Of a stretch of 64,000 bases of DNA, positions 20,727 through 58,451 are shown piece after piece. A program made the translations under genes and the position numbers. The stretch covers positions 1 through 64,000 of IMG/VR virus record IMGVR_UViG_2923682817_000001, one strand, 5' to 3'. This DNA is from a virus (lineage: Duplodnaviria; Caudoviricetes). Every line of letters starts with the position of its first letter. Position 1 is the first letter of the stretch. The notes beneath the pieces are model-generated. The model was not told where the DNA came from and did not search any database. It saw only the letters and a program-made list of their open reading frames with translations.

Positions 20727-20819
20727 CGTGGGGACCTTCCGTGGTGCGCGTTCTTGGTGGATTCGGGCCACCGTAGCGATCACCCCGTCTCGGTGTACAA
20801 CCTCCCAGCTCAGCGACGT

Positions 20820-25240: not shown

Positions 25241-25395
25241 TGCCGGCCCTCTCTTGCGGTCTACGGCGCCTTGCGGCGTCCTGTGGCAAGAGCAGAACAT
25301 GCATCCCAACTAGGGCCGCAACCCCCCAAAGAGACATCCCAACTAAGGAATGGAATGTGATGTTTTCCGCAGCCGGACAATCGGGTTATGCGGGG

Positions 25396-26463: not shown

Positions 26464-27147
26464 TCAGGTCATGCCGGTGGGCTGGTCAAGGGCCGGTTCC
26501 GGGGCGTAGGGATAGAAGTTGAGGACACGGTTGATGTAGCGGCCCGGCGACTTCTGCCTCTTAAAGTTCCGCCAAATGTTGGCTGGCACGTCGTAATAGC
26601 CGTACACCTGGCCGTTGCGGAATCGTACGCGCAGGGTGTTGGTGGTCTTGTCGTAGCCGGCGGCCAGGGTCCGCGGCCTGGGCGGATTAATGCTCGGGGT
26701 CGGCTGATAGGGCATGAGGTAGATGTCATTACCCTGCCGGGCCATTTCCAGCGCCCACCAGGCCATGGGATCCATGTGGACATGGCGGGACTCTTCTTGC
26801 TCGTTGAGATAGTCGAGCAGGTCGAGCTGTTCATGCTGGGCGTCGGCGTCCTGGGTGCCGTCGCGCTGGGCGCGCTGCTCGGCGGTGGGGATCAGGGCAT
26901 CGGCGGGGCGGGCGCCCGTTCGGCTCGGGAGGGGCCGCAGGGCCTCAGCGAAGCGCTGAGCGCGGACCTGGGCACTGGTGGCCGGCGCACCACGGCGGGG
27001 CGGCCGAGGGGCTGCAGTGGGCACAGGGGCCGGCGCAGGGGTCGATGCCGGCGCGGGCTGCGGTCCGGGATTTCCCGGGTTACGGGGTCTGAAGACCTTG
27101 CTCTGCTTGCTCTGCCGGCCACGGTTGCCGGACGGGCGGCGGGCCAT
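26464..27147 (-). CDS. KTSC-domain protein
   Basis: C-terminal AGYD...LRVRFRNG..YGY.DVP...W..F....SPGRYIN. Confidence 0.85.
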   Translation of the reverse strand: MARRPSGNRGRQSKQSKVFRPRNPGNPGPQPAPASTPAPAPVPTAAPRPPRRGAPATSAQVRAQRFAEALRPLPSRTGARPADALIPTAEQRAQRDGTQDADAQHEQLDLLDYLNEQEESRHVHMDPMAWWALEMARQGNDIYLMPYQPTPSINPPRPRTLAAGYDKTTNTLRVRFRNGQVYGYYDVPANIWRNFKRQKSPGRYINRVLNFYPYAPEPALDQPTGMT

Positions 27148-27365
27148 CAGATGCTGTGTCGGGCGATGGCGGCGTTGGCCCAGAACTGGGTCTCGTCGAG
27201 TGCGTCGATGGCCTTGTTCTTCTCGTGACCGTCGGGCATGAGCGTGTTGAGGACGTGGGCCAGGTTGAGACAGGCGGCGCGGACGCTCTCGTGCGCCTTG
27301 GCGCGGCTCTCAGAGATGGGCGGGTGGTGCGTAAATCGGCGATTGAGGGAGGAGGCGGGGATCAT
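27147..27365 (-). CDS. Acb2/Tad1-like helical hairpin protein (candidate nucleotide sponge)
   Basis: RFTHHPP...VR...LA..L....P...EK..AI..L.E..FWANAAIAR pattern. Confidence 0.6.
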   Translation of the reverse strand: MIPASSLNRRFTHHPPISESRAKAHESVRAACLNLAHVLNTLMPDGHEKNKAIDALDETQFWANAAIARHSI

Positions 27366-27463
27366 GTGGTGCTCCGATCAGCGTGGTTCCCTGGTCGGTG
27401 CGTGGTGGAGCCCGGTCCCGTCACTGTCTGAATCGGCCGTGACGGGACCGGGGTAAGGGGGGC

Positions 27464-27700
27464 TTACGCCGGAGGGGTGATGGTGCTGAGCGGGGGGCGC
27501 TTGGCGTCGTCGAAGGCGTAGTCGAATACGGCGGTGAGGTGCAGGCCCTCGTGGCCGTAGACCTGGCCGGAGTTGAGGTGGGGTGCGGTCGCACCACCGT
27601 TCTGCGCGGTGCCGCCAACGTTCGGCTCGTCGCGGTCGATCGACTTGTAATTCGGGTAGCCGGGGGCGACCAGGTTCTGGGGGTTCTGCTTGACTGCCAT
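27464..27700 (-). CDS. Hypothetical protein
   Basis: 78-aa ORF with GAAAGG upstream. Confidence 0.6.
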   Translation of the reverse strand: MAVKQNPQNLVAPGYPNYKSIDRDEPNVGGTAQNGGATAPHLNSGQVYGHEGLHLTAVFDYAFDDAKRPPLSTITPPA

Positions 27701-28048
27701 TATCGGCCTTTCGGGGATTTACTGGGACTCATCCCAGTATTGCTGGTTTTCGCCTTGAGGTGTTTGTGCGGTCGTGCCGGGCGCCCATTCGTATCCGAGC
27801 TCGTGGTTGGACACTGTTTCGTGGTAGCAGCCGGGCGGGCCGTAGTGAATTCCGTCATGGAAGTAGCAGGTCTGGACGTGCATCATGAGCCTTCGCGAAG
27901 TGCTGCCGACTTGATGGAGGTCGCTCGGAGCCGCTCGGCGTTCTCGGCCATTTCCGCCACGACGCGTTGGAGAGCGGTCTGTGCGGCGGTGATGTAGTCG
28001 GCGGGCTCAGATTCAGCGGTGCGCCGGGTTGTGCTCCAGGCCATATGC

Positions 28049-28384
28049 TCACGCCTTCGCGGTGTTGGAGTCCTTCGCCTGCGGATTTTTAGCTTCCGCC
28101 AGTCTGGTGGTGACGTCTTCCAACACGGCTACGACGTCCTCAAGCACGGCCGCGTTCTGCTTGGCACTGTCCACCATCGACTGCGCGATGGGGACTACTG
28201 TCTCGATGACGCCGGAAAGTCTTGCGTTCTCATCGACTACGCGCCGGTATGCGCGTCCGGGCACGACGATCTCGTTTACAAAGATGAGAAACACAAAGGC
28301 CGCGAGTGGGCCGAGGAACAGCGGATTCGTTAGAAAATCCCCCGCGGGTTCAACGGCGTTCGCAGCCAGTGTGAAGAGAAGCAC
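28049..28384 (-). CDS. Holin-like membrane protein
   Basis: One transmembrane helix, IVVPG motif and a coiled coil. Confidence 0.45.
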   Translation of the reverse strand: MLLFTLAANAVEPAGDFLTNPLFLGPLAAFVFLIFVNEIVVPGRAYRRVVDENARLSGVIETVVPIAQSMVDSAKQNAAVLEDVVAVLEDVTTRLAEAKNPQAKDSNTAKA

Positions 28385-28448
28385 GGTACCGCCGATCAGT
28401 CGAAATAACGTCTGTATTCGAGGGTACCGTTTTGTCGCTATTCGGTTG

Positions 28449-29045
28449 TTATGCGCGGGCGATGATGTCGTTGATGTCGTCGTAGGTGAGTTCGACGAAC
28501 CCGTCAGGCTTTTCTACCTTGCCGTCCGGCCGCTTCTTCACCTTTCCCGTTTCGGCGTCGATCTTCGTCTTGTTGTTGTCGTCGACCAGCTGGAAGACGG
28601 CGGGCAGATCGATACCCATCACTTCGGCCGTGCCGTAGACGACGTACAGCAGGTCGGCAAGCTCTTTCGCCAGTGCAGCGATGTTTCCGCGCCCGACCCG
28701 GAACTTGTAGATCTCGGTGTCGACCTCGTCGCTCTCTTCGCCGATGAGGGTCCGCCGCAGGACCAGGAGCTTCTGCTGAGCGTCGGTATCGAGCTCCAGG
28801 AACGGCTTCTGGTCGATCGCCTCGTGCCACTCTCGAAGCTCGGCCATGGGGTCGTAGCGGCGCGGTCGACGCGGCAGGGGCTGCACGGGCGGAAGCTTGA
28901 AGCGCACGGATCCGTCGGCGTTGACGCCTACCGGTTCGGGCAGGTCGTACATAGGCGGGCCGACCTCTTCAAACAGATCGTTGAGACTCTTCCAGACTTC
29001 CTGGCGAAGGAACCCGGGCTGGCCTTCCTTGAGGGGCTCAGTCAT
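28449..29045 (-). CDS. MazG-like NTP pyrophosphohydrolase
   Basis: LIGEESDE...KELADLLYVVYG...NNKTK...DGKVEKP. Confidence 0.85.
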   Translation of the reverse strand: MTEPLKEGQPGFLRQEVWKSLNDLFEEVGPPMYDLPEPVGVNADGSVRFKLPPVQPLPRRPRRYDPMAELREWHEAIDQKPFLELDTDAQQKLLVLRRTLIGEESDEVDTEIYKFRVGRGNIAALAKELADLLYVVYGTAEVMGIDLPAVFQLVDDNNKTKIDAETGKVKKRPDGKVEKPDGFVELTYDDINDIIARA

Positions 29046-29048
29046 GGG

Positions 29049-29873
29049 TCAGACCTCCAGCTGGAACAGGACAAAGTCACGCATGAGCTGGTTGCGGTCG
29101 TTCCACAGGTCTTCGGCGATCCAGAAGTTGACCTTGGCGCCGAAAATCTCGACCTCCTGGCGCCGGTACTTGGTCGGGTAAGTCGTCGAAGCGCTGGAGC
29201 GGTTGATGCCGGACAGGGAGGAGATCAGGCGGAAGCCCTGGGGCGGCTCGGTGTGGACGAAGTAGGTACCGAACGGCCCGTTGGGGTCGGTCTTACGCTG
29301 GCCGTGCTTCGGCCCGCCCAAGAAGATCTCCTTGTAGACCGGCTCGGGCGTGGGCTTCGGCTCGGCGGTCTCCGTGGGCTTGTCCCCGGCCGCGTAGCTC
29401 TTGAGCTGCTCGACGAGCTTGTCCTTGTCCAAGGGGGCCGAGGCCAGGGTGCCGTTCGGGCCGCCGCTGACGGACGAGAGCGCGGTGCCGAAGGAGTCGG
29501 AGAGGGAGAAGAAGGGGCGCCTGGAGGGGGCGAGACTGAGAGTGGGGCGGGCGGTGGGCCTGATCGGCTCGGGCTTGGGCTCAGGCTTCGGCTCGGGGCG
29601 GACGGGCACGGGCTTGACCGTGGCGCCCTGCTCGATCAGGTTGTAGATGCGGTTCCTCATCTGAGAGTTCCAGCACCTGGAGTAGAGGTAGGAAGGCCCG
29701 TAGATGAAGCACGCGTCCTTGGGGTCGATGCCGTCGAGCTGGGTCTGTGAGGTCAGGTAGATGATGTTGTTCGACCGCAGGCCGTTCTTGCGCAGGGTGT
29801 CCATGATCGGCTTCGCCACGGTGAGAGAGTGGGCGAGGACAAAGTGGCGGCGCTGCCGCTGCGTGGTGGGCAT
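29049..29873 (-). CDS. Hypothetical protein
   Basis: 274-aa ORF with good codon usage and PEPK linkers. Confidence 0.7.
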   Translation of the reverse strand: MPTTQRQRRHFVLAHSLTVAKPIMDTLRKNGLRSNNIIYLTSQTQLDGIDPKDACFIYGPSYLYSRCWNSQMRNRIYNLIEQGATVKPVPVRPEPKPEPKPEPIRPTARPTLSLAPSRRPFFSLSDSFGTALSSVSGGPNGTLASAPLDKDKLVEQLKSYAAGDKPTETAEPKPTPEPVYKEIFLGGPKHGQRKTDPNGPFGTYFVHTEPPQGFRLISSLSGINRSSASTTYPTKYRRQEVEIFGAKVNFWIAEDLWNDRNQLMRDFVLFQLEV

Positions 29874-29934
29874 GGCGAGGACGCTACGAATGCGTAGTTG
29901 GGATGCGTCAAGTTGGGATGTTTGCCCGGAAATG

Positions 29935-30115
29935 AAAAAGGCCCCGGAGGGGCAACCTCGGGGCCTGGCATCCGGACCATGGATGCTCTAAGAGAGTGGG
30001 CCGGCTTCCCCATCCACTGGATCCTCTTGCCCAAGATCCACCAAGAACAATCGCATCCGCAAGGTCGGGGAAACCGGCTTGTCGCTGACCCTACCGGTTC
30101 GTGGTCAGCGGGTGC
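29935..30115 (-). ncRNA. Candidate 3'-UTR-derived structured antisense RNA
   Basis: Several stems with G-U pairs on the minus strand, a segment complementary to early-gene leader A, and a terminator ending GGGGCCTTTTTC. Confidence 0.45.
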
Positions 30116-30118
30116 TAC

Positions 30119-30469
30119 TTAGGCCGCTACTGGTGAGCGGCCGAACTCTACCCAGCGGAACATCCCATAGGCGAACTTGTAGTGGAAGCCGTGGAGTGAG
30201 CCGTGCTGCTCGAAAATCAGGATGCCGTTGGGGATGGTGACCTGGCCGAACTCGACCATGCCAGTGATGCGCCAGCGGTTGCCGTTGCGGGTGTAGATGG
30301 CTGCCTCACGCTCGACCCAGGCCTGGGCGTCGGCGAGGTCGTCGTACCAGGGTTCGGGGGCCGGCAGGCTCTGGGTGCCGATCTTCCAGGCAGGCTTGGT
30401 GAGGTAGGCCCGCCATACCCAGTCGGTGGTGGGGGCCGTTGCGGTCGCTCCTTCAGGGCTGTTGTGCAC
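30119..30469 (-). CDS. Hypothetical protein (leader B)
   Basis: GTG start after CCACGCACCACCGAAGGGAA. Confidence 0.65.
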   Translation of the reverse strand: MHNSPEGATATAPTTDWVWRAYLTKPAWKIGTQSLPAPEPWYDDLADAQAWVEREAAIYTRNGNRWRITGMVEFGQVTIPNGILIFEQHGSLHGFHYKFAYGMFRWVEFGRSPVAA

Positions 30470-30502
30470 GGGGTTCCCTTCGGTGGTGCGTGGTGGTGGT
30501 TC

Positions 30503-30742
30503 TTAAATCAGGTGGTCCAGGGCGCCGGCCTTGATGTCGGCCGTCCAGGCGCCGATGTCGTCCGGGGTGAACACCAGGACGTGGCCGGTCGGGTGCTTGG
30601 TGTCCAGCATGCCGACCACTCCCCCGGCCAGCGGGGCGAGGGCGACACAGTTGCTGTTGCCGTGGGAACGGCTGCTCTTTCGCCAGGCAACGTCGGGCAG
30701 CTCGGTGGCGAGCATGCCGTTGCGGATATGGGTCATCTGCAT
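30503..30742 (-). CDS. DUF397 protein (standalone)
   Basis: WRKSSRS..NSNCV.LA...DTK.P...LVFT...IKAG. Confidence 0.9.
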   Translation of the reverse strand: MQMTHIRNGMLATELPDVAWRKSSRSHGNSNCVALAPLAGGVVGMLDTKHPTGHVLVFTPDDIGAWTADIKAGALDHLI

Positions 30743-30839
30743 GATCCCAGGATATTTGGAGGTGGCAATACCTGTCTATGGCCAGCTATTGCTGTATCGC
30801 ATCAGGCCTGGTAGAGACCCCCTGCCTAGGGTCAGCTAC

Positions 30840-31097
30840 ATGGTCGAATTTTCGGCGACGAAGCCGAAGTGGAAGCAGATCGCGGGGATACTGCGCGAGC
30901 GGATCCGCACGGGCGAGTATGGGCCGGACACGCTCATCGTCGAGCTGCAGCTGGCTCAGGAGTTCGAGGTCGCCCGCCAGACGATACGCAAGGCGATTAC
31001 GAAGTTGCGTGACGAAGGGCTGCTGGAGACCGAAGTCGGGGTCGGGTCGTCGGTCCGGGCCGGTGCGGTCGAGAGGCTCCAGGCGGTCGACGAGTAG
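30840..31097 (+). CDS. GntR-family winged-HTH regulator (DNA-binding domain only)
   Basis: WKQIA..LRERI..GEY.P...LAQEFEVARQTIRKA...LRDEGL...G.GS.V. Confidence 0.88.
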   Translation: MVEFSATKPKWKQIAGILRERIRTGEYGPDTLIVELQLAQEFEVARQTIRKAITKLRDEGLLETEVGVGSSVRAGAVERLQAVDE

Positions 31098-31296
31098 CTC
31101 GCCGCCGGCCGGCTCGATGGGATGCGGGCGGGCCGACGGCTCGTTTACGGCTGGCCCGTAGAGGGTAGATCATGATCTTGTCGTTGCCTACCAACTATAT
31201 GCAATTGGTCGTTACGAACCCTTCTGACCTGATCAGAGCGTTGATACTCTTCGGCTCGCGACGCACCTGTGCGCATAAGGGGTATTTGGAGCTGAC

Positions 31297-31653
31297 ATGG
31301 CAAAAGAACTTCGGGAACAGCTCGTCGACGATTTCGACGGGAGCGAGGCGGTCGACACGATCAACTTCGCGGTGTCGGGCTTCGCGTACGAGATCGACGT
31401 GTCAGAGGAGCACCGCAAGGAGTTCTGGGAGTTCATGGAGCCGTGGATGAAGACGGCCCGCCGTCAGGCTGTGCTGCGTCGCCCGCGTCGGTCGGGGATG
31501 CGTGGACCCGTCTGGGCGGATTCTCAGCGGGTACGGGCCTGGGCCAAGGAGGCCGGCTTGGAGGTCAGCGATAAGGGCTACCCGTCGCACGAGGTGCAGA
31601 TGAAGTTTGTGGCCGCCTACGCCAACGGGGATCTGCCCGACAAGTACTTGTGA
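31297..31653 (+). CDS. lsr2: Lsr2-family protein
   Basis: LVDDFDG..A..TINF.....YEID dimerisation domain; VRAWAKEAGLEVS DNA-binding domain. Confidence 0.88.
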   Translation: MAKELREQLVDDFDGSEAVDTINFAVSGFAYEIDVSEEHRKEFWEFMEPWMKTARRQAVLRRPRRSGMRGPVWADSQRVRAWAKEAGLEVSDKGYPSHEVQMKFVAAYANGDLPDKYL

Positions 31654-31894
31654 TCTGTCCGCTGACCGGACGTTAAGAGAGGGGAGTCCCCCGGATACCA
31701 CCCCGGGAGACTCCCCTTCTTCCTGACCAGCCTCGACAGGGCTTGAAGAAGGGTTCCTCCCCCTGATCGGTTGGTAGCTGGTGACTCACACCCAGGGAGT
31801 GCGCCCGCAACATCGACAAGCGGCGCTCGGTGAGCTGGAAGGACTCTACAGCCAGTTATGCGAGGCTTACCAGATCACGACTGTCCGTTCTGGA

Positions 31895-32020
31895 CATATT
31901 TCATCTGTTTTTAACTTTTTGCCGTTGACCTGGTCAAACTTTTTACTTCGAGCCTCCGCGCACCCTGATTTTGATCTTGTTTTTTGATCGTCTTTTGTCG
32001 TTGACCTTGTATTTGATCTT
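31895..32020. repeat. AT-rich repeat tract, candidate replication origin
   Basis: TTTGATC at 31970, 31983, 32012; CGTTGACCT at 31923, 31999; AACTTTTT at 31913, 31937. Confidence 0.55.
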
Positions 32021-32600
32021 CCCCACTCTCCGGGGCCGAGAGCCGGGAAGCGCAGGGCGGGGATCTCCCCTCCCCTCGCGCAGACCTGGGCCAAAAAAGG
32101 CGGTCTACACGAGGTGAGGGGAGACACGGAACTCTCCGTACGCCGCTTCGCGGTCGCTTGGTTGGTCACTCGTGCCGGACCGGGCATTACCACCGGTCCC
32201 AGGGCGAGATGTTGTGCAGATCTAGTACCCGGCCCCATCTCGATGGGTCGTCATCCGTAGTACGACTGGACTGCCAGCCCCAGAGTGAGCCTGTCTTAGC
32301 GTGCGCTCCCGGCCTCGCGGCGTTCACCCCAGCCCCGGGCCGAGCTCTACCGAAACGGCGGTCGCACCCGAGTACTGAAGCTAGGGAGCCAACCTCTGGC
32401 TGCCTACACATTCAGTAAGACCGTTTACCCCCTCTCGGGGGCTCTCTCTACACCCGGTGGCCAAGCCGGTGGGAGGTTACTCATTCCGCCTTTTCCTCCG
32501 CTGGCGGGACTGCCATCCACCGAGCCTCGTACGAGGGGCAGGGACTGCGCAGGGGCATGTTTCAGAGGGTGCCCACTCCCCAAAGTTGTTCGACGCGGCC
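32021..32600 (-). ncRNA. Candidate long structured RNA
   Basis: No convincing ORF; many hairpins; long stem 32064-32124 with G-U pairs on the minus strand; promoter-like TGTACA-17-TAACTT upstream. Confidence 0.4.
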
Positions 32601-32772
32601 GAAGTTACCAGGTATGGCCAGGTATGTACAGCTGTTGCCAGCTGCAAGATCGGGGCAGCCTCGCGAGCGACCGCGGCGCCCGAGCGCATCGGGCCGGCCC
32701 CCGCACGCGGCCGTCCGACAGACATGACAAGGCCCCCACCACTCGGCGGGGGCCTTGCCTACGTCTCGGGAT

Positions 32773-33015
32773 CTACCGGCGCCGCTGCGCCTTCCTGTGC
32801 CGCTTCTGGGGCGTCTTTGGCTTCTCCTCTGGGTACGGCTCCAACCCCATGGCTATACGCCGGGCGTTGTGCATCTTGTACCGAAACCTGAAACCGCCTT
32901 GACCGCGTCCACGCGGCTCACGGCACGGTTCGCCGGCCACCGCGGCGCACTTCTGCGCGGTGCAGAACACCGTGCCCCGCTCGTAAGGCTGCTGCGCCAC
33001 TCGTACCGTTCCCAT
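32773..33015 (-). CDS. Small Cys/His zinc-finger-like protein
   Basis: C....C.A..GEPC...H..R pattern; basic tail. Confidence 0.55.
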   Translation of the reverse strand: MGTVRVAQQPYERGTVFCTAQKCAAVAGEPCREPRGRGQGGFRFRYKMHNARRIAMGLEPYPEEKPKTPQKRHRKAQRRR

Positions 33016-33157
33016 GCGGCGATTCTAGCTGGAAGATCGCGCCGGAGCCACGGGGAAACCTGCTCACGAATACCGGAATGGTGTCCATAGACAGGTATGG
33101 CCAGCCACTAACACCTATAAGATGCACATAACATCCACCAAGAACAGCGGAGTACCC

Positions 33158-33715
33158 GTGACGCATCACACCGGATCCCACTACACGCCCGGCTACGGCT
33201 ACCCGCCTGCACCGGTTCCGTCCCGCCCGGGATTCAGCGGCTTGACCGTCGTCCTCGTCGCCTCTGGAACGCTCCTGTCCGGCTGCTTCGGCGGATTCAT
33301 CATCGGCAGCGTGAGCGGATCCACCGCGGCGGCTCCCTCCGAGCGCACGACCCTCCCGCGGGCCAGCAAGGCCGCCGTGCCGACCCACAAGTCCACCCAG
33401 CCCCAGGCGGCCGAAGCCGAGGGCGAGCCGCGCAAGCCTCGCCCTGGCGACTTCCAGCTCTCGGTTAAGACCCTGAAGCAGTCCTGTTTCAGCTCGGCCG
33501 GCTGCCTCATCACCTTTCGAGTGGTGCCGTCCTACCGCGGGCCGGCCCTGGGTGACCAGCAGTACACCGTCACCTACAAGGTCACCGGCGGTAAGGAACC
33601 GAAGATCGGATCGTTCACGATGGTCGGCGCCCAGCTCTCCTACGACCGCCAGGATTTCCTCTCCACCAACTCCTCCGCGGACCGGCTCGCTGCCGAGGTG
33701 ACCGAGGTTCTCTGA
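33158..33715 (+). CDS. Membrane-anchored/exported protein
   Basis: Hydrophobic helix, S/T/P linker, QSCFSSAGC domain; preceded by a leader-A-like sequence. Confidence 0.75.
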   Translation: MTHHTGSHYTPGYGYPPAPVPSRPGFSGLTVVLVASGTLLSGCFGGFIIGSVSGSTAAAPSERTTLPRASKAAVPTHKSTQPQAAEAEGEPRKPRPGDFQLSVKTLKQSCFSSAGCLITFRVVPSYRGPALGDQQYTVTYKVTGGKEPKIGSFTMVGAQLSYDRQDFLSTNSSADRLAAEVTEVL

Positions 33716-33772
33716 CCCCTGGCAGCAGGAAGGCCCCGCACCAAGCTGGTGCGGGGCCTTCCTCGTTCCTGG

Positions 33773-34333
33773 TCAGATGCGGAAGATCCTCGCGGTGCCG
33801 CGCTGGGCAGAGTAGACCCAGTAGTTGCGGTGGCCGGTTGCCTCTTCGTGGTCGGTCTGCCAGGTGTAGGCGACCTGCTCTTCCTCCGACGCCTCCGACC
33901 GCTCGGGGCAGTGACGACACTCGCTGTAGCAGAACGTCACTACGGCCCGATTGTCGGCCATCTTGTCGACCGGCCGCGCGTGGATCACTTCGCCAGCCGC
34001 GTGCACAAGCTCGCCAGCAGGCTCGGCCCCGGGCTCGGGGGCCGGCGGGGACAAGGTGGCGCCGATGGTGGCGGCGCAGTCGGTGAGGATGGTTTCGGCG
34101 AGCTCCTCCAGGGCAGCCACGTCAGCATGTCGCCACTTGGTGCCGGTCAACCCGGGGAGATCGGCCCGCATGAGGTTTCCCGGGGCGCTTCCGGCCGGGG
34201 CGATGAAGAAGACCGGCGCCTTGCCGACCAGTCCTTCCCGCCGGCCCCGCGGGGTGTTCTTCCACACGATGCGACACCCGGGCTTGGGCAGGCCGTCGAC
34301 CTGGACGGGGCGGCCCTTGTCGTCGGTGATCAC
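33773..34333 (-). CDS. Hypothetical protein with a C-terminal CxxC/H motif
   Basis: CRHC...HEEATGH; coupled to the upstream gene. Confidence 0.65.
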   Translation of the reverse strand: MITDDKGRPVQVDGLPKPGCRIVWKNTPRGRREGLVGKAPVFFIAPAGSAPGNLMRADLPGLTGTKWRHADVAALEELAETILTDCAATIGATLSPPAPEPGAEPAGELVHAAGEVIHARPVDKMADNRAVVTFCYSECRHCPERSEASEEEQVAYTWQTDHEEATGHRNYWVYSAQRGTARIFRI

Positions 34334-35050: not shown

Positions 35051-35446
35051 TCAGTACATGAACAGGAACCAGACGGTGCGGCCCTTGGCGCCGGCCTCTT
35101 CTCGAACCCCCCAGGCCTCCGACCGATCGCTCAGCAACTTCATGCCTCGGCCGCTCTCGGCGAGCTCGTCGACTTCGAGCACCTGCGGCGCCGACGACTC
35201 CGATCCGTCGTCGCGGACTTCGACGAGCACGTAGTCCGGACCGGTCTCCAGTCCGACGGCGACTTGCCCACCGTTTCCGGAACGCGTGTGGCGAACCGCG
35301 TTGGTAACGAGCTCGGAGACCGCCAGCACGAGGTCATCATGTAACGGGTGTTCGCTGCTGATCAGATCTCGCACCCAGTCGCGCGCCTGGCCGGGGGCCT
35401 GCGTTCCGCCCGGAACCTGGTACTCGGAAAGCAGTCCGATCATCAT
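35051..35446 (-). CDS. HATPase_c anti-sigma-like ATP-binding protein
   Basis: LAVSELVTNAVRH, VEVRDDG, ESGRGM.L, WGV, VWF. Confidence 0.9.
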   Translation of the reverse strand: MMIGLLSEYQVPGGTQAPGQARDWVRDLISSEHPLHDDLVLAVSELVTNAVRHTRSGNGGQVAVGLETGPDYVLVEVRDDGSESSAPQVLEVDELAESGRGMKLLSDRSEAWGVREEAGAKGRTVWFLFMY

Positions 35447-35654
35447 ACTTCGACCCTTTCGCCAGCCCCGATTTCGCTCAATGGTCAGCCCAAGGAGGCC
35501 CCATCCAGGCGAGAGCGCGAACGCCCAACATGCGGTGGAGGACCCGTTACTCTCGATCGTGACGGTTCGACACGCCCATGTAAAGCCGTTCGATCGGAAC
35601 GGTTCGAGTGACTTACGTTCCAAATCCAGGCAAAGGGTGCAGAAGGGGTGCGGT

Positions 35655-36512
35655 ATGGGTGGTAGATCAAGCCCGACCATCGGGCGGCGGCAGCTCGCTG
35701 GAGAACTCCGCAGGCTACGTACGGCAGCCAAGATGACTCGCGAGGATGTAGCCGAGCAGCTCGACTGCGCGCCGGCCACCGTCACGAAGTTCGAGAACGC
35801 AACGGCCGCGGTCAGCGTGGCCACAGTCGCAATGCTCATGGAGATCTACGGCGTCGCCGGCCCCGCTCGCGACGACATGCTGAAGCTTGCCCGCGAGGCC
35901 CGCCAGCGTGGATGGTGGCACCAGTACAGCCGAGCGATCCCAGCATGGTTTTCCGTCTACGTCGGCCTGGAGGAAGCAGCATCGGAGATCAGCTCCTGGC
36001 ACCCCGAAGTGCTTGACGGCCGACTTCAGACCGAAAGCTACATGCGCGCCCTGATCAGCGCCGAGCTGCCAGTCCCCGACGCCTCGGAGATCGACCGCCG
36101 GGTGGCCGTACGACTCAAGCGCCAGGAACGCCTACACGAATCCGAACCGCTCAGCCTCTGGGTCGTCATCGGCGAGGCCGCGCTGCGCCGGCTGGTCGGC
36201 GGCCCCGAAACCATGCGCGAACAGCTCGAACACCTTGTGCAGCAGTCCCTACTGAACAACGTGACCATTCAGGTTCTTCCGTACAAGACCGGCGCCTACC
36301 CCGGCATGCACGGCGGATTTCACCTGCTCCGCTTCCCAGAAGCCACCGGGGACGCCATCGTGTACGTTGAATACCAGCAGGGGTCCATTTACCTGGAGAA
36401 GAAGCCAGACGTGGCCTCCTATGATCGTCTCTTCGACCACCTCGTGGCCAGGGCTCTCGGCCCGGACGAATCCCGTGCCATGATCACGCAGGTGGCCGAG
36501 GAATACTCGTAG
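35655..36512 (+). CDS. XRE-HTH plus DUF5753 regulator (WhiJ-like)
   Basis: RRQLAGELRRLR, GWW, LQTESY.RA, RLKRQ, GEAAL, QVLP, YLE. Confidence 0.92.
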   Translation: MGGRSSPTIGRRQLAGELRRLRTAAKMTREDVAEQLDCAPATVTKFENATAAVSVATVAMLMEIYGVAGPARDDMLKLAREARQRGWWHQYSRAIPAWFSVYVGLEEAASEISSWHPEVLDGRLQTESYMRALISAELPVPDASEIDRRVAVRLKRQERLHESEPLSLWVVIGEAALRRLVGGPETMREQLEHLVQQSLLNNVTIQVLPYKTGAYPGMHGGFHLLRFPEATGDAIVYVEYQQGSIYLEKKPDVASYDRLFDHLVARALGPDESRAMITQVAEEYS

Positions 36513-36541
36513 CACTACCAGCAGAAGGGTGCAGGTGACCT

Positions 36542-36796
36542 ATGGCACCGAAGCAGTGGCGTAAGGGCAGTCTCAGCGGCAACGGCGGCGCGGACTGCGT
36601 CGAAGTGGCGGTCGTTCCCGGCAACGACCCCGAGGTGGCCGAGAACAAGGCCGGTGAGCCCATCGTCTACCTCGTCCGCGACTCCAAGAACCCCGAGGCA
36701 GCCCCGCTGTCGTTCGACAAGCGCGAGTGGGCCGCATTCATCGGCTCGGTGAAGCTCGGCGAGTTCGACCCCGAGGCGGAGCCGGCGACCGTCTGA
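36542..36796 (+). CDS. DUF397 protein
   Basis: WRKGS.S.NGGADCVEVA...VRDSKNP...EW.AF...VK.GEFD. Confidence 0.92.
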   Translation: MAPKQWRKGSLSGNGGADCVEVAVVPGNDPEVAENKAGEPIVYLVRDSKNPEAAPLSFDKREWAAFIGSVKLGEFDPEAEPATV

Positions 36797-36974
36797 TCAG
36801 CTCGTTGATAGGCCCTCCCCGGGATCCGGGGAGGGCCTATCTATTTGGAACGGAACCTATGTGGGAGATTTCCGGAACGGTTCGATCCGAACTTGTTACC
36901 TTGAACGGATAGTCCGTAGTCGCTCGTGGCCGTAGCGTCATGGGCGACCGATCACCAACACGGAGGTGTGCACC

Positions 36975-37193
36975 ATGTCTGCCAGAGAAGCCGAGGTTAC
37001 TGTTGAGGTCGTCCCGGGAGACCACCCGTCCGTCCCCCCTCACAAGCGCGGAACCGACGCGCAGATCTGGCTCGTCATCGTCGGCAATGAGGGGCTGCTG
37101 GCCTTCAACAAGGCCGAATGGACGGCCTTCATCGGCGGCGTCAAGGACGGCGAGTTCGACATCGAAGACGCTGACGAGCTGACGACCGTCTAA
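36975..37193 (+). CDS. Divergent DUF397-like protein lacking the WRKSS/Cys motif
   Basis: Keeps VEV and LAF..AEWTAFIGGVKDGEFD only. Confidence 0.75.
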   Translation: MSAREAEVTVEVVPGDHPSVPPHKRGTDAQIWLVIVGNEGLLAFNKAEWTAFIGGVKDGEFDIEDADELTTV

Positions 37194-37236
37194 CCGCACA
37201 CGTCCGTACACAACCCCATCAGTGAGGAGCAAGACC

Positions 37237-37437
37237 ATGGATCTGACCGGTGCGAAGTGGCGCAAGAGCAGCCGCAGCAACGGCAACGGCGGCGAGTGCG
37301 TCGAAGTGGCCGACAACCTCCCCGGCGTCGTCGGCGTGCGTGACTCCACGGACCCGAGCGGGCCGGCCCTGGCCGTCAGCCGCCCGTCCTGGGGCGCCTT
37401 CATCCGCGCCGCGAAGTCGGGCATGTACGACGCCTGA
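37237..37437 (+). CDS. DUF397 protein
   Basis: WRKSSRSNGNGGECVEVA...VRDS.DP.GP.L. Confidence 0.93.
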   Translation: MDLTGAKWRKSSRSNGNGGECVEVADNLPGVVGVRDSTDPSGPALAVSRPSWGAFIRAAKSGMYDA

Positions 37438-37502
37438 TGACCGATAAGCGGAGACCCTCCCCGATGAAGGCGGGGAGGGTCTCACAGAGCGAGGATACCC
37501 AC

Positions 37503-37700
37503 ATGCACAAGTACGCTGGCGCCCTCTGGCGCAAGAGCCGGCGCAGCACCAACGGCGGAGACTGCGTCGAAGTGGCGGTCGTTCCCGACGCCGTCGGCCT
37601 CCGGGACTCCACGGACCCGCACGGACCTGTGCTGGACCTCACCCGGGAGCAGTGGCACCGCTTCGCCCGTTCCGTGAAGGCCGGCGAGCACGACGTCTGA
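37503..37700 (+). CDS. DUF397 protein
   Basis: WRKSRRSTNGGDCVEVA...LRDS.DP.GPVL. Confidence 0.92.
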   Translation: MHKYAGALWRKSRRSTNGGDCVEVAVVPDAVGLRDSTDPHGPVLDLTREQWHRFARSVKAGEHDV

Positions 37701-43932: not shown

Positions 43933-44072
43933 TTTCGTGCTCCCTTGCGGTTGTTCTTGGTGGACTACTTGGAGCCTAGCACGCATGAGGAATGTACAGC
44001 AACATATTCCTCAAATTGGCCTCTGGGCAGCAGAAAACCCCCGCACCATGCGCGGTACGGGGGTTTGCTGGC
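43933..44072 (-). promoter_or_regulatory. Repeat module: terminator, operator, promoter, leader A
   Basis: Operator 43986-44013; TTGCTG-18-TAGGCT; CCACCAAGAACAACCGCAAGGGAG. Confidence 0.85.
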
Positions 44073-45516: not shown

Positions 45517-45657
45517 TTTCGTGCTCCCTTGCGGTTGTTCTTGGTGGACTACGTGGAGCCTAACACGTCTAAGGAATCTACGTAAACACATTCCTCAGAT
45601 AGGGCTGTGAGCAGCAGCGAACCCCCACCCCATGCGCGTTGCAGGGGTTCGCTGGCA
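45517..45657 (-). promoter_or_regulatory. Repeat module: terminator, operator, promoter, leader A
   Basis: Operator 45570-45597; TTTACG-18-TAGGCT. Confidence 0.85.
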
Positions 45658-47214: not shown

Positions 47215-47352
47215 TTGGGGCTCCTTGCGGTCGTTCTTGGTGGATTACGTGGAGCCTAGCACAGATGAGGAATATACGTAAACATATTCCTCAACATGAG
47301 CCTGAACAGCAGAAACCCCCAACACCACATGAGGCGTTGGGGGTTTCTGTGT
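47215..47352 (-). promoter_or_regulatory. Repeat module: terminator, operator, promoter, leader A
   Basis: Operator 47266-47293; TTTACG-18-TAGGCT. Confidence 0.85.
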
Positions 47353-47876: not shown

Positions 47877-49151
47877 TCATGCGGCCAGCGCGGCGGCGTC
47901 CTGGTCGGTGGGGCTCTTGGCGTCGAATCCGAGGGCCGACAGGATCTCGTTAGAGACCTGAAGGACGCGGGCGGCGCTGTCCTTCACGGCCTTGACGTCC
48001 TTCCCCCAGCCGGCCACGTAGGGGACCGCGTACTGAGCCGATTCGATGCCCGCGACAGTGGCGACCACGAACGACACCGACTCGGCCTCAACCTCCTGGG
48101 CCTCCCGGCTCATGCCTCGCGTGTTGTGCTCGCACATGATGTGCGCCAGCTCATGCGTGAGGGACGTCACGGCCTGCGCGTCGACCTGGTGGCCCTTGAC
48201 CACAACGCGCCGTTCGGCGAAGTTCACGAAAGCCTCAGCGCTCCCGGCGTCGCCACGCTCCAAGGTGTACCCGCGGGCCTCAACCTGCGCGGCCAGCGCA
48301 TCCCACAGCCACGCCGGAGCATCGCCGGTCAGATCCTGGGGAATCGGCGCGGCGGCCGTCGGCACTGGCTCCCCCTCGGTCTGGGAGATGTCGAACACCG
48401 GGACCAGGAAGAACCGCGTGGAGTCGAACCCGGAGATAAGGGTGATCTCGGTTTCCTGACCGGTCGCGGCGTCGGTCTCCGTAACGGTCATGGTGTCGGC
48501 CTTCTTGGTGCGGGGCGCCCAGACCTTGAGAGACTTGCTTCCCTTGATCACCGTTCGTCCAAGCTTGTTCCACTCCGAAAGCGGGCGGACGTCGGTTGCT
48601 TCGGGCATCTGGGTCCGCAGAAAAAGCGTGTTGTTCAGGCTGTACTTACGCAGGGACGCCCGGAATCGGAGCATCTCGGCCCAACCCTCCGCGGTGGTCA
48701 GGGTCTCTACCGCGGCCGTCAGTGCCTCGTGGGCTTCCTGCATGCGCTTGGCGCGCTCCTCCGGGGTGAGACTGAACCGACCGGACTTCTTCTTGCCGGT
48801 CTTCTTCTTGCCGTTCTTCGCGGTGGTGGACTTCTTGGCCGGTGCGGCGGCGGCCTTGACGGGCTCGGGCTTGGGCTCAGGCTTGACCGGCTCGGGCTGC
48901 TGGCCGTCGATCTCAGCGAGGGCCGCCCGCCCAAGGTCGGTGATCACATAGGCCCAGTTGCTGCGGTCGGTCGGGGTGTTCTTCTCGACCAGACCGCGCC
49001 GCTTGAGAGCCTGCACCGAGTTGGCGTTAACGCCAGCCCTGCGCATGTCGTCCAGGAAGGCGGCCACGCTGCCGCCGGCGACTGCGAGATTCCGGAGGCT
49101 GGTGATCATCAGGGCGGAGAGGCCGCGGACGTTGTCGAGAGTGTTCGCCAT
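47877..49151 (-). CDS. ardC: ArdC-like antirestriction protein (ssDNA-binding plus HExxH domain)
   Basis: W..ML.F...L..YS.NN....Q...AT.V....W..LGR.V.KG.K; VFDISQT.G; THELAH; EVEAES. Confidence 0.85.
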   Translation of the reverse strand: MANTLDNVRGLSALMITSLRNLAVAGGSVAAFLDDMRRAGVNANSVQALKRRGLVEKNTPTDRSNWAYVITDLGRAALAEIDGQQPEPVKPEPKPEPVKAAAAPAKKSTTAKNGKKKTGKKKSGRFSLTPEERAKRMQEAHEALTAAVETLTTAEGWAEMLRFRASLRKYSLNNTLFLRTQMPEATDVRPLSEWNKLGRTVIKGSKSLKVWAPRTKKADTMTVTETDAATGQETEITLISGFDSTRFFLVPVFDISQTEGEPVPTAAAPIPQDLTGDAPAWLWDALAAQVEARGYTLERGDAGSAEAFVNFAERRVVVKGHQVDAQAVTSLTHELAHIMCEHNTRGMSREAQEVEAESVSFVVATVAGIESAQYAVPYVAGWGKDVKAVKDSAARVLQVSNEILSALGFDAKSPTDQDAAALAA

Positions 49152-49290
49152 TTTCGTGCTCCCTTGTGGTTGTTCTTGGTGGATGTGAAGACCGTAGCAC
49201 GTCCAAGGAATCTAGTGCAACACATTCCTTAAAAATGCCTCTGAGCAGCAGAGAGCCCCAACGCCATGCATGGTGTTGGGGCTCTCTGGT
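49152..49290 (-). promoter_or_regulatory. Repeat module: terminator, operator, promoter, leader A
   Basis: Operator 49204-49231; TTGCAC-18-TACGGT. Confidence 0.85.
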
Positions 49291-50016: not shown

Positions 50017-50054
50017 GTGGTGCTCCCTGCGGTGCGTTGTTCTTGGTGGTGTGC

Positions 50055-53239: not shown

Positions 53240-53372
53240 GGCCCCCGTTCCCCCTATGGGATCGGGGGCTTTTTGCTGCTCACAGTCTTTTTTGAGGAAT
53301 GTATTGCGCTGCATTCCTTGTCGGTGCTACGGTATTCACATCCACCAAGAACAACCGACAAGGAGCCACCAC
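53240..53372 (+). promoter_or_regulatory. Repeat module: terminator, operator, promoter, leader A
   Basis: Operator 53293-53320; TTGCGC-18-TACGGT; TCCACCAAGAACAACCGACAAGGAG. Confidence 0.85.
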
Positions 53373-56163: not shown

Positions 56164-56832
56164 ATGTTGATCACTGAACTGATCCCCGAGGGTATGTCGG
56201 GACCTGGCCGGCAGACGGTCGAGCTCGACGGCGTGACGTATGAGCTCGTCGCCTGGGGACATCTCCGTTCCGGCGACCCGGTTAGCTGGGACGTGGTCCG
56301 CTTGGCTGGAGAGGATCGCGTCAGGTTTGCGCACATCATCCAGCACCAGCCGACAGAGCGTGTGTTCGACGTTCGGCCGGTTTCGTGGTTCATGCCCACG
56401 GTGACGACCAGCGTGACTGGTGACCTGGCCGAGATCGTGGCCGAGGTTCGCAAGCACAACGAGGCCGACGACAGGCTGTTTGCCGAGGAGGTAGGCGATC
56501 TGCGCGGGTTCGCTGCGCTGGTCTGGGCGGTCAGGCACTCGCCGATCAAGTCGGAGTTCAGCAAGCGGTACGACACCTACCGGATCCCTGTGTACGACGC
56601 GTTGCCACTGGTCTGGGTGACTCTGCGGTTCGAGACCGAGTCGCGGACCGTGCCTTACTACGATGCCGAGACGAACGAGATGACGACCAGGCTGCTGGAG
56701 TTCGGCCCCAACGGCAAGTACACGGTGCAGGTGCGCAACCCGGAATACCAGGATGAAGACGTCCGGCTGTTCGACGACCCGCGCGAAGCGGTCCGCAGCG
56801 CTGCGGAAGCGGCGAACTCTGCCTACACCTGA
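56164..56832 (+). CDS. Early-array hypothetical protein
   Basis: GAGGAG ribosome site; 222 aa. Confidence 0.7.
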   Translation: MLITELIPEGMSGPGRQTVELDGVTYELVAWGHLRSGDPVSWDVVRLAGEDRVRFAHIIQHQPTERVFDVRPVSWFMPTVTTSVTGDLAEIVAEVRKHNEADDRLFAEEVGDLRGFAALVWAVRHSPIKSEFSKRYDTYRIPVYDALPLVWVTLRFETESRTVPYYDAETNEMTTRLLEFGPNGKYTVQVRNPEYQDEDVRLFDDPREAVRSAAEAANSAYT

Positions 56833-56878: not shown

Positions 56879-56957
56879 GTTTATCCACCACGGGCGGCAC
56901 CGAAGGGAATTCCGTACCACCGCGGCATCAACGGTAGCAGGCTGCCGGACGGTCCGG

Positions 56958-58451
56958 TCAGTCTCCGATCACCTCGGCCTCAACAATGCCGGCGTCAGCG
57001 AAGACGTGGTCCGACTGCACCGGGGCCGCCAGTGCCCGAGCCGATTCCGACGCGTCTTTGCCGAACAGTCTGGCGATCATTCCGGACTGGGCCTGAGCTC
57101 GGGACGAGGCCTTGACCGAGATGGACAGCGTTTCCGATTCCGACTCGCGGTGCTTGGCGATGCTGCGGTCCCATCCGTCCAGCTCCTTAGTCAGGTTCGG
57201 GTCGGCGTATCCGCCTTCCATCTGCTCGACCATGTGCATGAACGCGATTCGCTGGAATCTGATGGCTCGGATTGCGTCGTCGGCGGCGTCGATCTGCTCG
57301 CGCGTCCGCAACGTGATGGGCACCTCATAGGCGCAGCCGGCGTCAGGGCGAAATGCCTTGCAGTGGGAGGCGATATAGCAACTATTGCACTGGCGTAGGG
57401 ACGTGCCGGCGATGCTCGGCAGGTTGTCGGTGCGGCTGATCTGCTCGCCGTTTTCTCCCAGCTCAGAGCGTGAAACCTGGCGGAGCGAGAGGCCCGGGAG
57501 GAGCTCGCGTTCGCTCTCGTCGCGGGCGACCGCAGTTGTGGTTTTGGTCCGAGCTTCTGGGGTGTCCATCCCAACTACGGCAGGGGTGGTTTCCCCATTT
57601 ACGTCCGTGACCGGTTCAGGCGACATAGTAAGTGTTTTCTTTCGCGAGTTGAGATGTCCGACCAGCTGGCGCCACGACCAGACGGCGACCTTCAGGACCT
57701 CGGTGGAGTCGTCGCCCTCGAACAGGTCCGTGTCGAATCCCTCACGGTCCAGGTGCGCGCGGTGACGCTTGCGGCCCTGCGCCTTGTAGGCCTTGGGGTA
57801 GCGCTTCAACGTGTGGCCGGTCCAGATCTGGGAGTCGCCGTACTGGGCCGGCGACAGCCAGCTGGTGGATGCGACCGAGTCCCAGGCGATCGACTCCATG
57901 AGGTCCGGCTTGGTCATTGCGATGCCGTGCAGACGAACCCCGCGGCGGGCGATCCGGTTGAGGACGCCGGCGATGTCTCGGCCGGAGATCGACGTCTGCG
58001 GCACCCCGACGCGGCCGTAAGAGTCCGCCAGGCGCTCCAGCTCGGGCAGGCCGGCGGCTGCGTCCCAGATCGGGAGGAATTTCTCCCCCAGGTCGCCGTA
58101 GAAGTCCGATCGCTGGCGCTCGATCCAGTCCGGTCCCATGGCGCGGGCGTCCAACTCGGAGACCATCTCGACCCTGTCCAGGTTCGCCAGGACGAAAGCC
58201 TGATAGCGGTCCGACAGGGTCTCGATGTCCTCGCGGCTGTAGGAATCCGGTTTGCTGTTGACGGTGTAGGCGCCGGAGTCCAGGAAGACGCGTTGTCCGT
58301 CTGGGTATTTGTCGCTGATGAGCCATGGCCGGGCGAATTTCGTCCGGCGGGACAGACCGACGAAGGACAAGCCAACGTCGGTCACGTCCTGCTCGGCGAG
58401 GAGCTTGCGCCAGCCTGGGATCTCCGACCCACCGAAGTAGAGGGTCAGCAC
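56958..58451 (-). CDS. TGT/DpdA-like barrel protein with a C-terminal Cys cluster
   Basis: VFLDSGAY, LHGIAMT, DSVASTSW; CNSC.....C........C. Confidence 0.6.
   Translation of the reverse strand: MLTLYFGGSEIPGWRKLLAEQDVTDVGLSFVGLSRRTKFARPWLISDKYPDGQRVFLDSGAYTVNSKPDSYSREDIETLSDRYQAFVLANLDRVEMVSELDARAMGPDWIERQRSDFYGDLGEKFLPIWDAAAGLPELERLADSYGRVGVPQTSISGRDIAGVLNRIARRGVRLHGIAMTKPDLMESIAWDSVASTSWLSPAQYGDSQIWTGHTLKRYPKAYKAQGRKRHRAHLDREGFDTDLFEGDDSTEVLKVAVWSWRQLVGHLNSRKKTLTMSPEPVTDVNGETTPAVVGMDTPEARTKTTTAVARDESERELLPGLSLRQVSRSELGENGEQISRTDNLPSIAGTSLRQCNSCYIASHCKAFRPDAGCAYEVPITLRTREQIDAADDAIRAIRFQRIAFMHMVEQMEGGYADPNLTKELDGWDRSIAKHRESESETLSISVKASSRAQAQSGMIARLFGKDASESARALAAPVQSDHVFADAGIVEAEVIGD

Follow-up and report, generated by a model that had tools for sequence, protein, structure and literature searches.

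The stretch of DNA analysed here (the window) is the first 64 kb of C4, a 105,521-bp phage contig of 65.5% GC that belongs to a 10.5-Mb genome whose large contigs are 71–72% GC. C4 encodes a tail sheath, baseplate parts, a large terminase, an integrase, an excisionase-like protein and an endolysin as well as Acb2/Tad1-like, MazG-like, Lsr2-like and ArdC-N-like proteins and several DUF397 proteins; because of this structural, integrase, excisionase-like and accessory gene content, we regard C4 as a temperate, myovirus-like actinophage that was assembled as its own contig. In the window, a minus-strand operon consisting of a DUF397 gene and a gene for a 116-aa protein is followed by a 3′ untranslated region (UTR) of ~180 nt, which starts at the stop codon of the second gene (30119–30121) and runs to a U-tailed terminator. 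Upstream of that terminator lies an inverted, gene-less copy of leader A, the sequence with which the mRNAs of six early genes, and in part those of four more, are predicted to begin. We tentatively propose that 29935–30118 yields a trans-acting, 3′-UTR-borne anti-leader RNA that would occlude the 5′ end and the ribosome site of the leader-A mRNAs (Table 1).

Table 1 Features of the anti-leader region, its operon and the leaders it is predicted to pair with
Feature	Position	Strand	Remark
Anti-leader part 1, UUGUUCUUGGUGGA	30037..30050	-	Complement of the first 14 nt of leader-A mRNAs
Insert AUGCGA, 6 nt	30051..30056	-	Bulges against the common leader; pairs partly with the CGCA insert of the 50037 variant
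Anti-leader part 2, CCUUGCGG	30057..30064	-	Complementary to CCGCAAGG, the leader part that continues into the AAGGGAG ribosome site
Hairpin 1, just past the stop codon	30083..30110	-	8-bp stem plus 2, no U tail, −15.3 kcal/mol
Anti-leader stem-loop	30000..30078	-	Closing stem of 13 bp (30000–30012/30066–30078, one G-U) around inner helix and apical loop
Hairpin 3, GCAUCC-N7-GGAUGC	29968..29986	-	Fold prediction
Intrinsic terminator	29935..29965	-	G+C-rich hairpin 29940–29965, then U5 29935–29939; U tail on the minus strand only
Promoter-like site, DUF397 operon	30749..30781	-	TAGACA-18-TATCCT, sigma-70-like
DUF397 gene, 79 aa, first in operon	30503..30742	-	Pfam PF04149, E 4.7e-14
116-aa orphan gene, leader B upstream (30474–30488)	30119..30469	-	GC content at third codon positions (GC3) 0.85
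Leader-B orphan copy (on the plus strand)	56887..56926	-	No start codon; 3′ UTR of minus-strand gene 56958–58451
Leader A, 397-aa gene (start 43932)	43943..43964	-	Downstream of AGGAAT-N12-ATTCCT operator-promoter
Leader A, 466-aa gene (start 45516)	45527..45548	-	Pattern scan
Leader A (A13>G), 516-aa gene (start 47214)	47223..47244	-	Pattern scan
Leader A, ArdC-N-like 424-aa gene (start 49151)	49162..49183	-	Pattern scan and domain match
Leader A variant with CGCA insert, 125-aa gene (start 50016)	50025..50050	-	Best predicted duplex partner
Leader A, 87-aa gene (start 53373)	53341..53363	+	Pattern scan
Leader A, first half only, gene start 33158	33134..33147	+	Different promoter
Leader-A-like 5′ UTR, 392-aa membrane-like gene (start 20726)	20748..20761	-	Adjoins integrase gene

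Leader A has the sequence TCCACCAAGAACAA-CCGCAAGGGAGC. Complete leader-A cassettes are found at 43951, 45535, 47231, 49170 and 50037 on the minus strand and at 53341 on the plus strand, and partial copies, mainly of the first half, lie behind other upstream sequences at 33134 (plus) and at 40261, 20748 and 62027 (minus). The sites that an earlier note on this DNA had named are real, with a promoter and a start codon at six of them and a partial copy before the gene at 33158. Within a cassette, an upstream terminator is followed by TTG-AGGAAT-N12-ATTCCT, a TAGGCT-like −10 element, leader A, GGGAGC and the start codon. The AGGAAT-N12-ATTCCT element forms an inverted repeat over the −35 region, and leader A lies about 8 nt downstream of the −10 element and therefore at the predicted 5′ end of the mRNA. 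This operator-promoter precedes the leader-A genes (at 44011, 45595, 47291, 49229, 50095 and 53295) and also genes with a second leader, leader B (at 34716, 50144 and 52513); counting both strands, at least nine early promoters have the palindromic operator across their −35 region, with sites in 19423–53318. Leader B, whose core is CACCACCGAAGGGAA and which is often preceded by CCACCACG, has 12 copies at up to two mismatches, 11 of them directly before start codons (30474–30488, 34633, 42083, 42669, 47805, 50215, 50572, 50965, 51650, 52566 and 55360), some inside operons. Since the same operator-promoter drives leader-A and leader-B genes, leader A is a module separable from its promoter; the first half of leader A is also found behind other promoters. 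With one promoter type split into two leader classes, the leader therefore resembles a post-transcriptional tag.

The copy at 30037 is the only leader-A copy that has no gene. It lies on the plus strand between two minus-strand genes and reads TCCACCAAGAACAA (30037–30050), TCGCAT (30051–30056) and CCGCAAGG (30057–30064); the minus-strand reading CCTTGCGG-ATGCGA-TTGTTCTTGGTGGA that the earlier note gave for 30037–30064 is correct. The copy agrees with the leader-A consensus at 22 of 22 positions (14/14 in the first part, 8/8 in the second). At up to two mismatches the 14-mer has 11 matches in the window where 0.17 are expected, a count reached by 0 of 100 shuffles, and the two-part pattern has three matches in the window versus 0.00 expected. 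Genome-wide, nine of the 12 matches to the 14-mer at up to one mismatch are in the phage, and all nine are inside the window. Because the orphan copy is situated between the stop codon and a U-tailed terminator that exists on the minus strand only, it can be transcribed only as antisense.

Sequence, orientation and the isolation of the copy from other cassette parts were computed directly. Around the copy there is no operator, promoter, −10 element, GGGAG Shine–Dalgarno core or start codon, and short-word BLAST of 29880–30125 against the genome returned, within the phage, only 13–19 nt of leader and two unrelated 13–14-mers. The earlier note had allowed for a cassette remnant; no remnant was found beyond the leader itself, which is consensus-perfect at its 22 positions. 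Its statement that no credible plus-strand gene follows the copy also held, the sole candidate being a 53-aa open reading frame (TTG 30079–30240) that runs antisense through the 116-aa gene and was rejected, with a GC3 of 0.45 versus about 0.85 for genes here and no Pfam match. Also rejected was the idea of an enhancer complementary to rRNA: chromosomal near-matches to the anti-leader number only three, each of them single (sites not inspected), where an rRNA site would be present in multiple copies.

The state of the flanks bears on the main rival explanation, a recombination scar. Here, exchanges at the leader would have trimmed an inverted cassette from both sides, leaving a neutral copy in an ordinary stabilising 3′-UTR hairpin, and shared leaders would mark module junctions in a mosaic phage. 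The cassettes have clearly spread by duplication and recombination (repeats of 72–190 nt, with copies 74–88% identical to the reference), a second orphan exists (leader B, 56887–56926), and the nearest relatives do not have this early region, a sign of high turnover. Yet neither flank of the 30037 copy is canonical, although one would be expected to stay so after a single exchange at the leader, and the leader itself is intact, with the consensus base at all 22 positions amid unrecognisable surroundings. We consider a scar rather unlikely.

A second rival takes leader A as a double-stranded DNA site at +1 to +14, similar to a stoperator, or as a protein-bound RNA site, so that the orphan would be an extra or decoy site whose strand is irrelevant. 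L5-type stoperators are DNA sites for the immunity repressor that are scattered through the genome. Leader A is likewise a short asymmetric sequence repeated in one orientation relative to transcription (10 of 11 copies), it sits at the predicted transcription start, and its first half occurs alone behind other promoters; the L5 sites, mentioned as regulators of transcription, are asymmetric 13-bp sequences (PMC3203893). Unlike stoperators, leader A is found at mRNA 5′ ends beside a separate palindromic operator, and the promoters thus already have an inverted-repeat site of their own. The orphan moreover keeps the ribosome-site half, which a DNA site at +1 would not need, and the spacing of the two halves varies from 0 to 6 nt, which would be tolerated more easily by RNA pairing than by a DNA-binding protein. 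No candidate binding protein was identified, although candidate regulators exist (GntR-like, 30840–31097; XRE-DUF5753, 35286–36512). A DNA or protein site seems to us improbable.

The predicted fold of the transcript is consistent with an anti-leader RNA. Measured from stop codon to U tail, the minus-strand RNA is 187 nt long and folds at −87.4 kcal/mol (z score −3.61; 0 of 200 shuffles as good) with pair probabilities near 0 or 1; the plus strand of the same region also folds well (z score −3.06). The earlier note had described a 12-bp stem enclosing the copy, hairpins on its flanks and a U-tailed terminator. The enclosing stem is present but has 13 bp, and the C-A mismatch that it has on the plus strand is a G-U pair on the minus strand, in line with the observation that the mismatches become G-U pairs on the minus strand only; both flanking hairpins (30083–30110 and 29968–29986) and the minus-strand-only terminator, a hairpin at 29940–29965 followed by U5, were found as described. 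Inside the large stem-loop, UUGUUC is predicted to pair with GGGCAA and GGAU with AUCC, leaving the apical loop UUGGUGGAUCUU, which is crossed by a single predicted G-C pair. The sequence UUGGUGGA, the complement of the 5′ end of leader-A mRNAs, is located in this loop, and exposure is greatest for the eight bases that complement positions 1–8 of the leader. The calculated cost of opening is 1.6 kcal/mol for this 8-nt seed, 9.6 kcal/mol for the 14-mer and 15.9 kcal/mol for all 28 nt. That the 13-bp stem brackets the copy exactly, with the seed in the predicted apical loop, is a further point against a scar.

Duplexes with the leaders were calculated for an anti-leader segment restricted to 30035–30066. 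Pairing with ten leaders yields −25.5 to −44.5 kcal/mol, or −7.2 to −24.5 kcal/mol net of opening both sides; the target leaders contribute 1.3–4.9 kcal/mol to the opening and, being so cheap to open, are predicted to be unstructured. When 35,162 windows of 36 nt, taken from both strands of the entire phage, were scanned as partners (mean −18.7 kcal/mol, standard deviation 3.8), the top non-self partners were the leaders at 50037, 20748, 43951, 45535 and 47231, and one unrelated window, 63545 (−37.7 kcal/mol), ranked among them. The strongest duplex is that with the 50037 leader, whose CGCA insert pairs with UGCG of the 6-nt anti-leader insert, while with common leaders the six bases bulge; going by these predicted duplexes, the 6-nt insert is not arbitrary. 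The ten target 14-mers contain eight departures from the consensus, five of which would still pair as G·U. True mismatches number three and are confined to the ends (positions 1, 1 and 14); each of the four internal changes is compatible with wobble pairing.

These predictions suggest a mechanism. Provided that transcription proceeds through the UTR and that the RNA is stable enough to accumulate, the UTR itself, or a fragment cut from it, would act in trans. In vivo, its apical loop UUGGUGGA would meet the unstructured 5′ end UCCACCAA of each leader-A mRNA, and the helix would extend to 14 bp and then, across the 6-nt bulge, by 8 more bp that cover the start of the ribosome site. The duplex would block initiation, present RNases with a double-stranded target, or both, the sign of the effect presumably being repression, and one RNA would shut down unrelated, separately transcribed early genes together. 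The same pairing might have another outcome, namely protection of the mRNA 5′ ends against 5′-dependent RNases, which would amount to activation, or sensing of early mRNAs, in which pairing would refold the UTR and so alter termination at 29935–29965 and read-through into the genes beyond it. The predicted duplex begins at the very 5′ end of the mRNAs, and the element is directly upstream of the terminator and of a leftward gene block (29873 leftwards), which opens beyond the terminator with a 274-aa minus-strand gene starting at 29873 and includes the MazG-like and Acb2/Tad1-like genes. Repression is favoured, however, by the reach of the duplex into the ribosome site; inspection of the sequence revealed no convincing antiterminator pairing as an alternative, and the downstream gene has a promoter-like region of its own with repeated CATCCCAACT. 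A different outcome of the pairing strikes us as improbable.

The operon that would produce the anti-leader RNA is predicted to be transcribed from a promoter of a different type from the early operator-promoters, giving a leaderless mRNA from ATG 30742. At its −35 region is the 14-mer CCATAGACAGGTAT (30768–30781, minus strand), which recurs only before the gene at 33158 (33085–33098, plus strand). A promoter scan found no promoter-like site between the stop codon at 30119–30121 and the terminator at 29935–29965. Because the DUF397 operon promoter lacks the early operator, the anti-leader RNA could act at either of two times, quenching leaky early transcripts in a lysogen or shutting early genes off during lytic growth.

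The second orphan, a copy of leader B, is found between convergent genes, past the terminator of the plus-strand gene 56164–56832 and in the 3′ UTR of a minus-strand gene (56958–58451) that matches a queuine tRNA-ribosyltransferase-like PHROG. Its hairpin is predicted at −24.0 kcal/mol on the minus strand versus −12.0 kcal/mol on the plus strand, with four G-U pairs, and exposes in its loop UUCCC, the complement of GGGAA in the leader-B ribosome site. It thus repeats the design of the leader-A orphan and therefore supports a functional class; that both orphans are antisense in minus-strand 3′ UTRs with minus-favoured hairpins also speaks against scars. The leader-B copy nevertheless means that orphan leaders are not unique, and such orphans are equally predicted by the scar hypothesis.

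The earlier note had likened the locus to the processed antisense RNAs P1 C4 and P4 CI, and this parallel holds as an analogy but not as membership of either family. The c4 RNA is a structured phage antisense RNA whose exposed loops pair near a ribosome-binding region, repressing phage genes, and it is processed from the transcript of icd-ant, the one operon that it targets. The immunity function of this antisense RNA of P1 and P7 was described by Citron & Schuster (1990), as cited in a review (PMC12197685). The proposed RNA would likewise be a phage-encoded, structured antisense RNA with an exposed loop complementary to the vicinity of a ribosome site. In contrast, its targets would be six to ten separate transcripts elsewhere: the operon transcript itself carries no leader A, and the leader-A sites have their own promoters and lie 3–32 kb from the anti-leader (33134 being nearest and the six full cassettes 14–23 kb away). 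P4 CI is a small processed phage RNA that is complementary to repeated seqA/seqC sites in leader transcripts and acts on nascent transcripts of its own operon, causing termination. Complementarity to repeated leader sites is common to both cases, whereas here the sites are the 5′ ends and ribosome sites of many mRNAs; an Rfam search detected no homology to P4 CI. For c4, too, there is no Rfam match in sequence or structure. Over the whole window, Rfam gave 0 matches at gathering thresholds, and 29850–30200 searched at E ≤ 10 gave four weak hits (E 1.3–6.1), all on the terminator region, with 13–17 bits versus gathering scores of 41–112. As no model matches and the targets are in trans, the element is not a member of the c4 or CI family.

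A closer counterpart by location is the class of 3′-UTR-derived, trans-acting small RNAs (sRNAs) of enterobacteria such as CpxQ, SroC and DapZ, which depend on Hfq and use short imperfect seeds against host genes. The anti-leader shares with them its place between a stop codon and the terminator on the same strand and, in prediction, an accessible seed and several targets in trans. It differs in its 14+8 nt of perfect complementarity, in belonging to an actinomycete that has no Hfq and in that its targets bear a common tag. An accessible seed (predicted cost 1.6 kcal/mol) together with 14+8 nt of perfect complementarity at initiation regions is also what a trans-acting antisense RNA should have.

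By architecture, the nearest system lies in Cluster K mycobacteriophages. These carry 11–19 copies of a 13-bp start-associated sequence (SAS), GGGATAGGAGCCC, just upstream of gene starts (Pope et al. 2011, PMC3203893), and about half of the copies have an upstream inverted repeat, the extended SAS (ESAS) (PMC3203893), which has since been interpreted as a SigA-like promoter plus operator in the paper on phage Adephagia (PMC11373665). Pope et al. left open whether RNA or protein binds the SAS (PMC3203893), and the passages on it in papers of 2024 and 2025, including PMC11373665, still call its role unknown. The phage studied here is unrelated, and neither leader A nor leader B is the sequence GGGATAGGAGCCC located 3–9 bp upstream of starts; sequence, host and phage type all differ. 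The architecture is nonetheless shared: both systems repeat a motif at gene starts, place an inverted-repeat promoter before some of the copies and have a single orphan in reverse orientation. ESAS resembles the AGGAAT-N12-ATTCCT promoter, and in both cases an identical asymmetric motif is found at the ribosome site of many non-structural genes. Judged by its sequence contexts, leader B is a start-associated sequence in the Cluster K sense. From position and motif arrangement, we accordingly place the leader-A orphan with the 3′-UTR-derived sRNAs by location and closest to SAS/ESAS by architecture.

The single reversed SAS of phage Anaya is at 59870–59882, within the 385 bp of non-coding sequence that separate gp96 from gp97. 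This gap has matches in 182 phage records, at 70–100% identity, and in Anaya (59849–59904) and in homologous stretches the reversed copy lies in the apical loop of a hairpin. We sampled 16 phages, Anaya and 15 others chosen down the similarity ranking. An anti-SAS loop (≤3 mismatches) is present in six of the 16, a different loop sequence in seven (five C/U-rich, two not), and in the remaining three the loop is deleted or absent. A consensus fold built from 12 of the 16 (KiSi and SirPhilip, with a deleted loop, and Keshu and Pharb, in which a longer insert replaces the loop, were left out) has 16 pairs. Five of these show compensatory double changes, and several are G-U when read on the gene-sense strand. 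This covariation argues that the Cluster K hairpin is a genuine RNA structure, with the inverted start-associated motif exposed in its loop. Most loops are rich in C and U and complement the ribosome site; from the aligned sequences, however, the loop is not co-conserved with the SAS. The hairpin follows a terminator-like hairpin rather than being in a demonstrable 3′ UTR, and the parallel with Cluster K is best described as analogy, not homology. Our literature search on RNA-seq or non-coding RNA at the reversed SAS of Cluster K returned nothing usable.

Anatomy, seed, predicted pairing and a separable leader all fit the earlier suggestion that one sRNA silences many genes through a shared leader acting as a tag; our confidence in it is nonetheless limited, and we hold it as a possibility falling short of an even chance. 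Several considerations weigh against it. The evidence is in silico and comes from a single genome, and no relative with the region was found in phage, plasmid, viral-contig, genus or family searches. A single 3′ UTR would need to titrate as many as ten mRNAs made from strong promoters, and the partial target at 33158 has the same promoter type as the operon that would make the RNA. In the minimum-free-energy structure, UUGUUC and part of CCUUGCGG are paired, so that full pairing needs 16–19 kcal/mol of opening. The stem-loop is more stable on the minus strand (−42.8 kcal/mol, with four G-U pairs) than on the plus strand (−31.6 kcal/mol), a difference of 11.2 kcal/mol; in random 83-nt phage windows the strand difference is +1.7 ± 6.4 kcal/mol and 5.5% of them reach −8.7. 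This asymmetry of −11.2 kcal/mol is weak and not independent evidence: a C/A-rich leader has a G/U-rich complement, whose composition alone lets it form more G-U pairs. Similarly, the wobble signal among the target leaders (4–5 changes, mostly A>G) is only suggestive, since the events are few and A>G is favoured by transition bias and GC pressure. In Cluster K, finally, four phages with other loop sequences (Amgine GCUUCCCUUCCC, Amohnition CCCUCCUUCCCC, Unicorn UUCUCCCUUCCC and Marshawn, whose CCAAAACGCCU is non-complementary) keep 17–18 forward SAS copies; the SAS is unchanged, at 16–18 copies in each of the five records checked.

The individual searches for relatives gave the following results. 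By blastn, 29000–31500 had no match in phages and 27000–34000 none in plasmids; the two flanking proteins had no tblastn match in phages either, 39 further genomes of the genus had 0 matches at the DNA level, and no related locus was found in IMG/VR viral contigs. In 400 other genomes of the family the 14-mer had single matches in 14 and no cluster in any. Exact leader patterns occurred in two viral, one genome and 17 metagenome stretches, every one single-copy. Five of these, the ones that blastn matched again to the leader, were examined in context: four belong to a single coding sequence (..ATKNNRKEA..) on contigs of ~47% GC, and no cassette surrounds the fifth. For the remaining 15, metagenome loci, the judgement was based only on their single copy and their lack of blastn or meaningful tblastx similarity to the phage. 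We rejected all of these stretches as chance matches. The earlier note had proposed looking for covariation of the leader and its inverted copy in relatives, and no relative carrying the region was found for such a comparison.

If the anti-leader RNA exists, it may belong to a wider scheme, which we consider an unlikely generalisation at present: some actinophages would give a set of unrelated early genes an identical leader, an address tag, and would time or silence the set with one inverted copy in a hairpin loop in the non-coding tail of a transcript. The window would hold two such pairs (A, 30000–30078; B, 56887–56926), and the scheme would explain the Cluster K SAS and its reversed copy. 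Phage antisense RNAs and 3′-UTR-derived sRNAs are known already, and what would be new is the control of many separately transcribed genes via a shared 5′ tag. A multi-gene address tag with a dedicated anti-tag RNA was not found in the sections available of a 2025 review of phage sRNAs (PMC12197685) or in literature searches. Start-associated motifs of actinophages have been without a function since 2011, and an anti-leader RNA is a concrete, testable hypothesis for them. If it is true, a tag/anti-tag pair would be a compact, orthogonal tool to switch off gene sets in actinomycetes.

The nearest named kin of the phage are BRock-like Streptomyces phages, with 60–61.5% identity in the terminase (60–63% for the terminases of distant kin overall). 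In BRock, neither the leaders nor the operator were found by a motif scan of the first 50 kb and a repeat scan of the first 16 kb. Two other distant relatives are a 110,447-bp contig, G088:C45, and a prophage in genome G366, which have structural and replication genes in common with the phage at 23–66% amino-acid identity; the early region is not common to either, and no comparable cassettes were seen in the three G088 stretches scanned. G088:C45 is a syntenic relative from another genus of the same family, likewise assembled as its own contig, and has a tRNA-like repeat cluster at about 50.1–51.1 kb. The 116-aa protein matched only itself among 5.8 billion proteins in a near-length search. 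The identical protein is on record on two contigs, the longer of which is 408,952 bp; another assembly may therefore have the phage joined to a larger replicon or integrated into one.

Several neighbouring genes have likely or candidate functions. Counter-defence is likely for an Acb2/Tad1 hairpin-domain protein (27147–27365, minus), a MazG-like pyrophosphohydrolase (28449–29045, minus) and an ArdC-N-like protein (47877–49151, minus) whose gene bears leader A. Divergent from the DUF397 operon, a plus-strand gene at 30840–31097 encodes a small GntR-family protein that consists only of a helix-turn-helix domain (85 aa, E 5e-15), a candidate phage regulator, and an Lsr2-like gene (31297–31653) lies downstream of it. 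Besides the DUF397 gene at 30503–30742, four DUF397 paralogues follow a gene for an XRE-DUF5753 (WhiJ-like) regulator in 35286–37700 (plus). A 91-nt tRNA-Cys with anticodon ACA that ARAGORN reports at 33541–33631 (plus) is within the open reading frame 33158–33715 and is probably a false call. Finally, the motif CATCCCAACT has six exact copies versus 0.09 expected (at 25302–25344, 29896–29920, 52434 and 57567), including two tandem pairs in promoter regions, one of which is just downstream of the terminator at 29935–29965, beside the palindrome CTACGCATTCGTAG.

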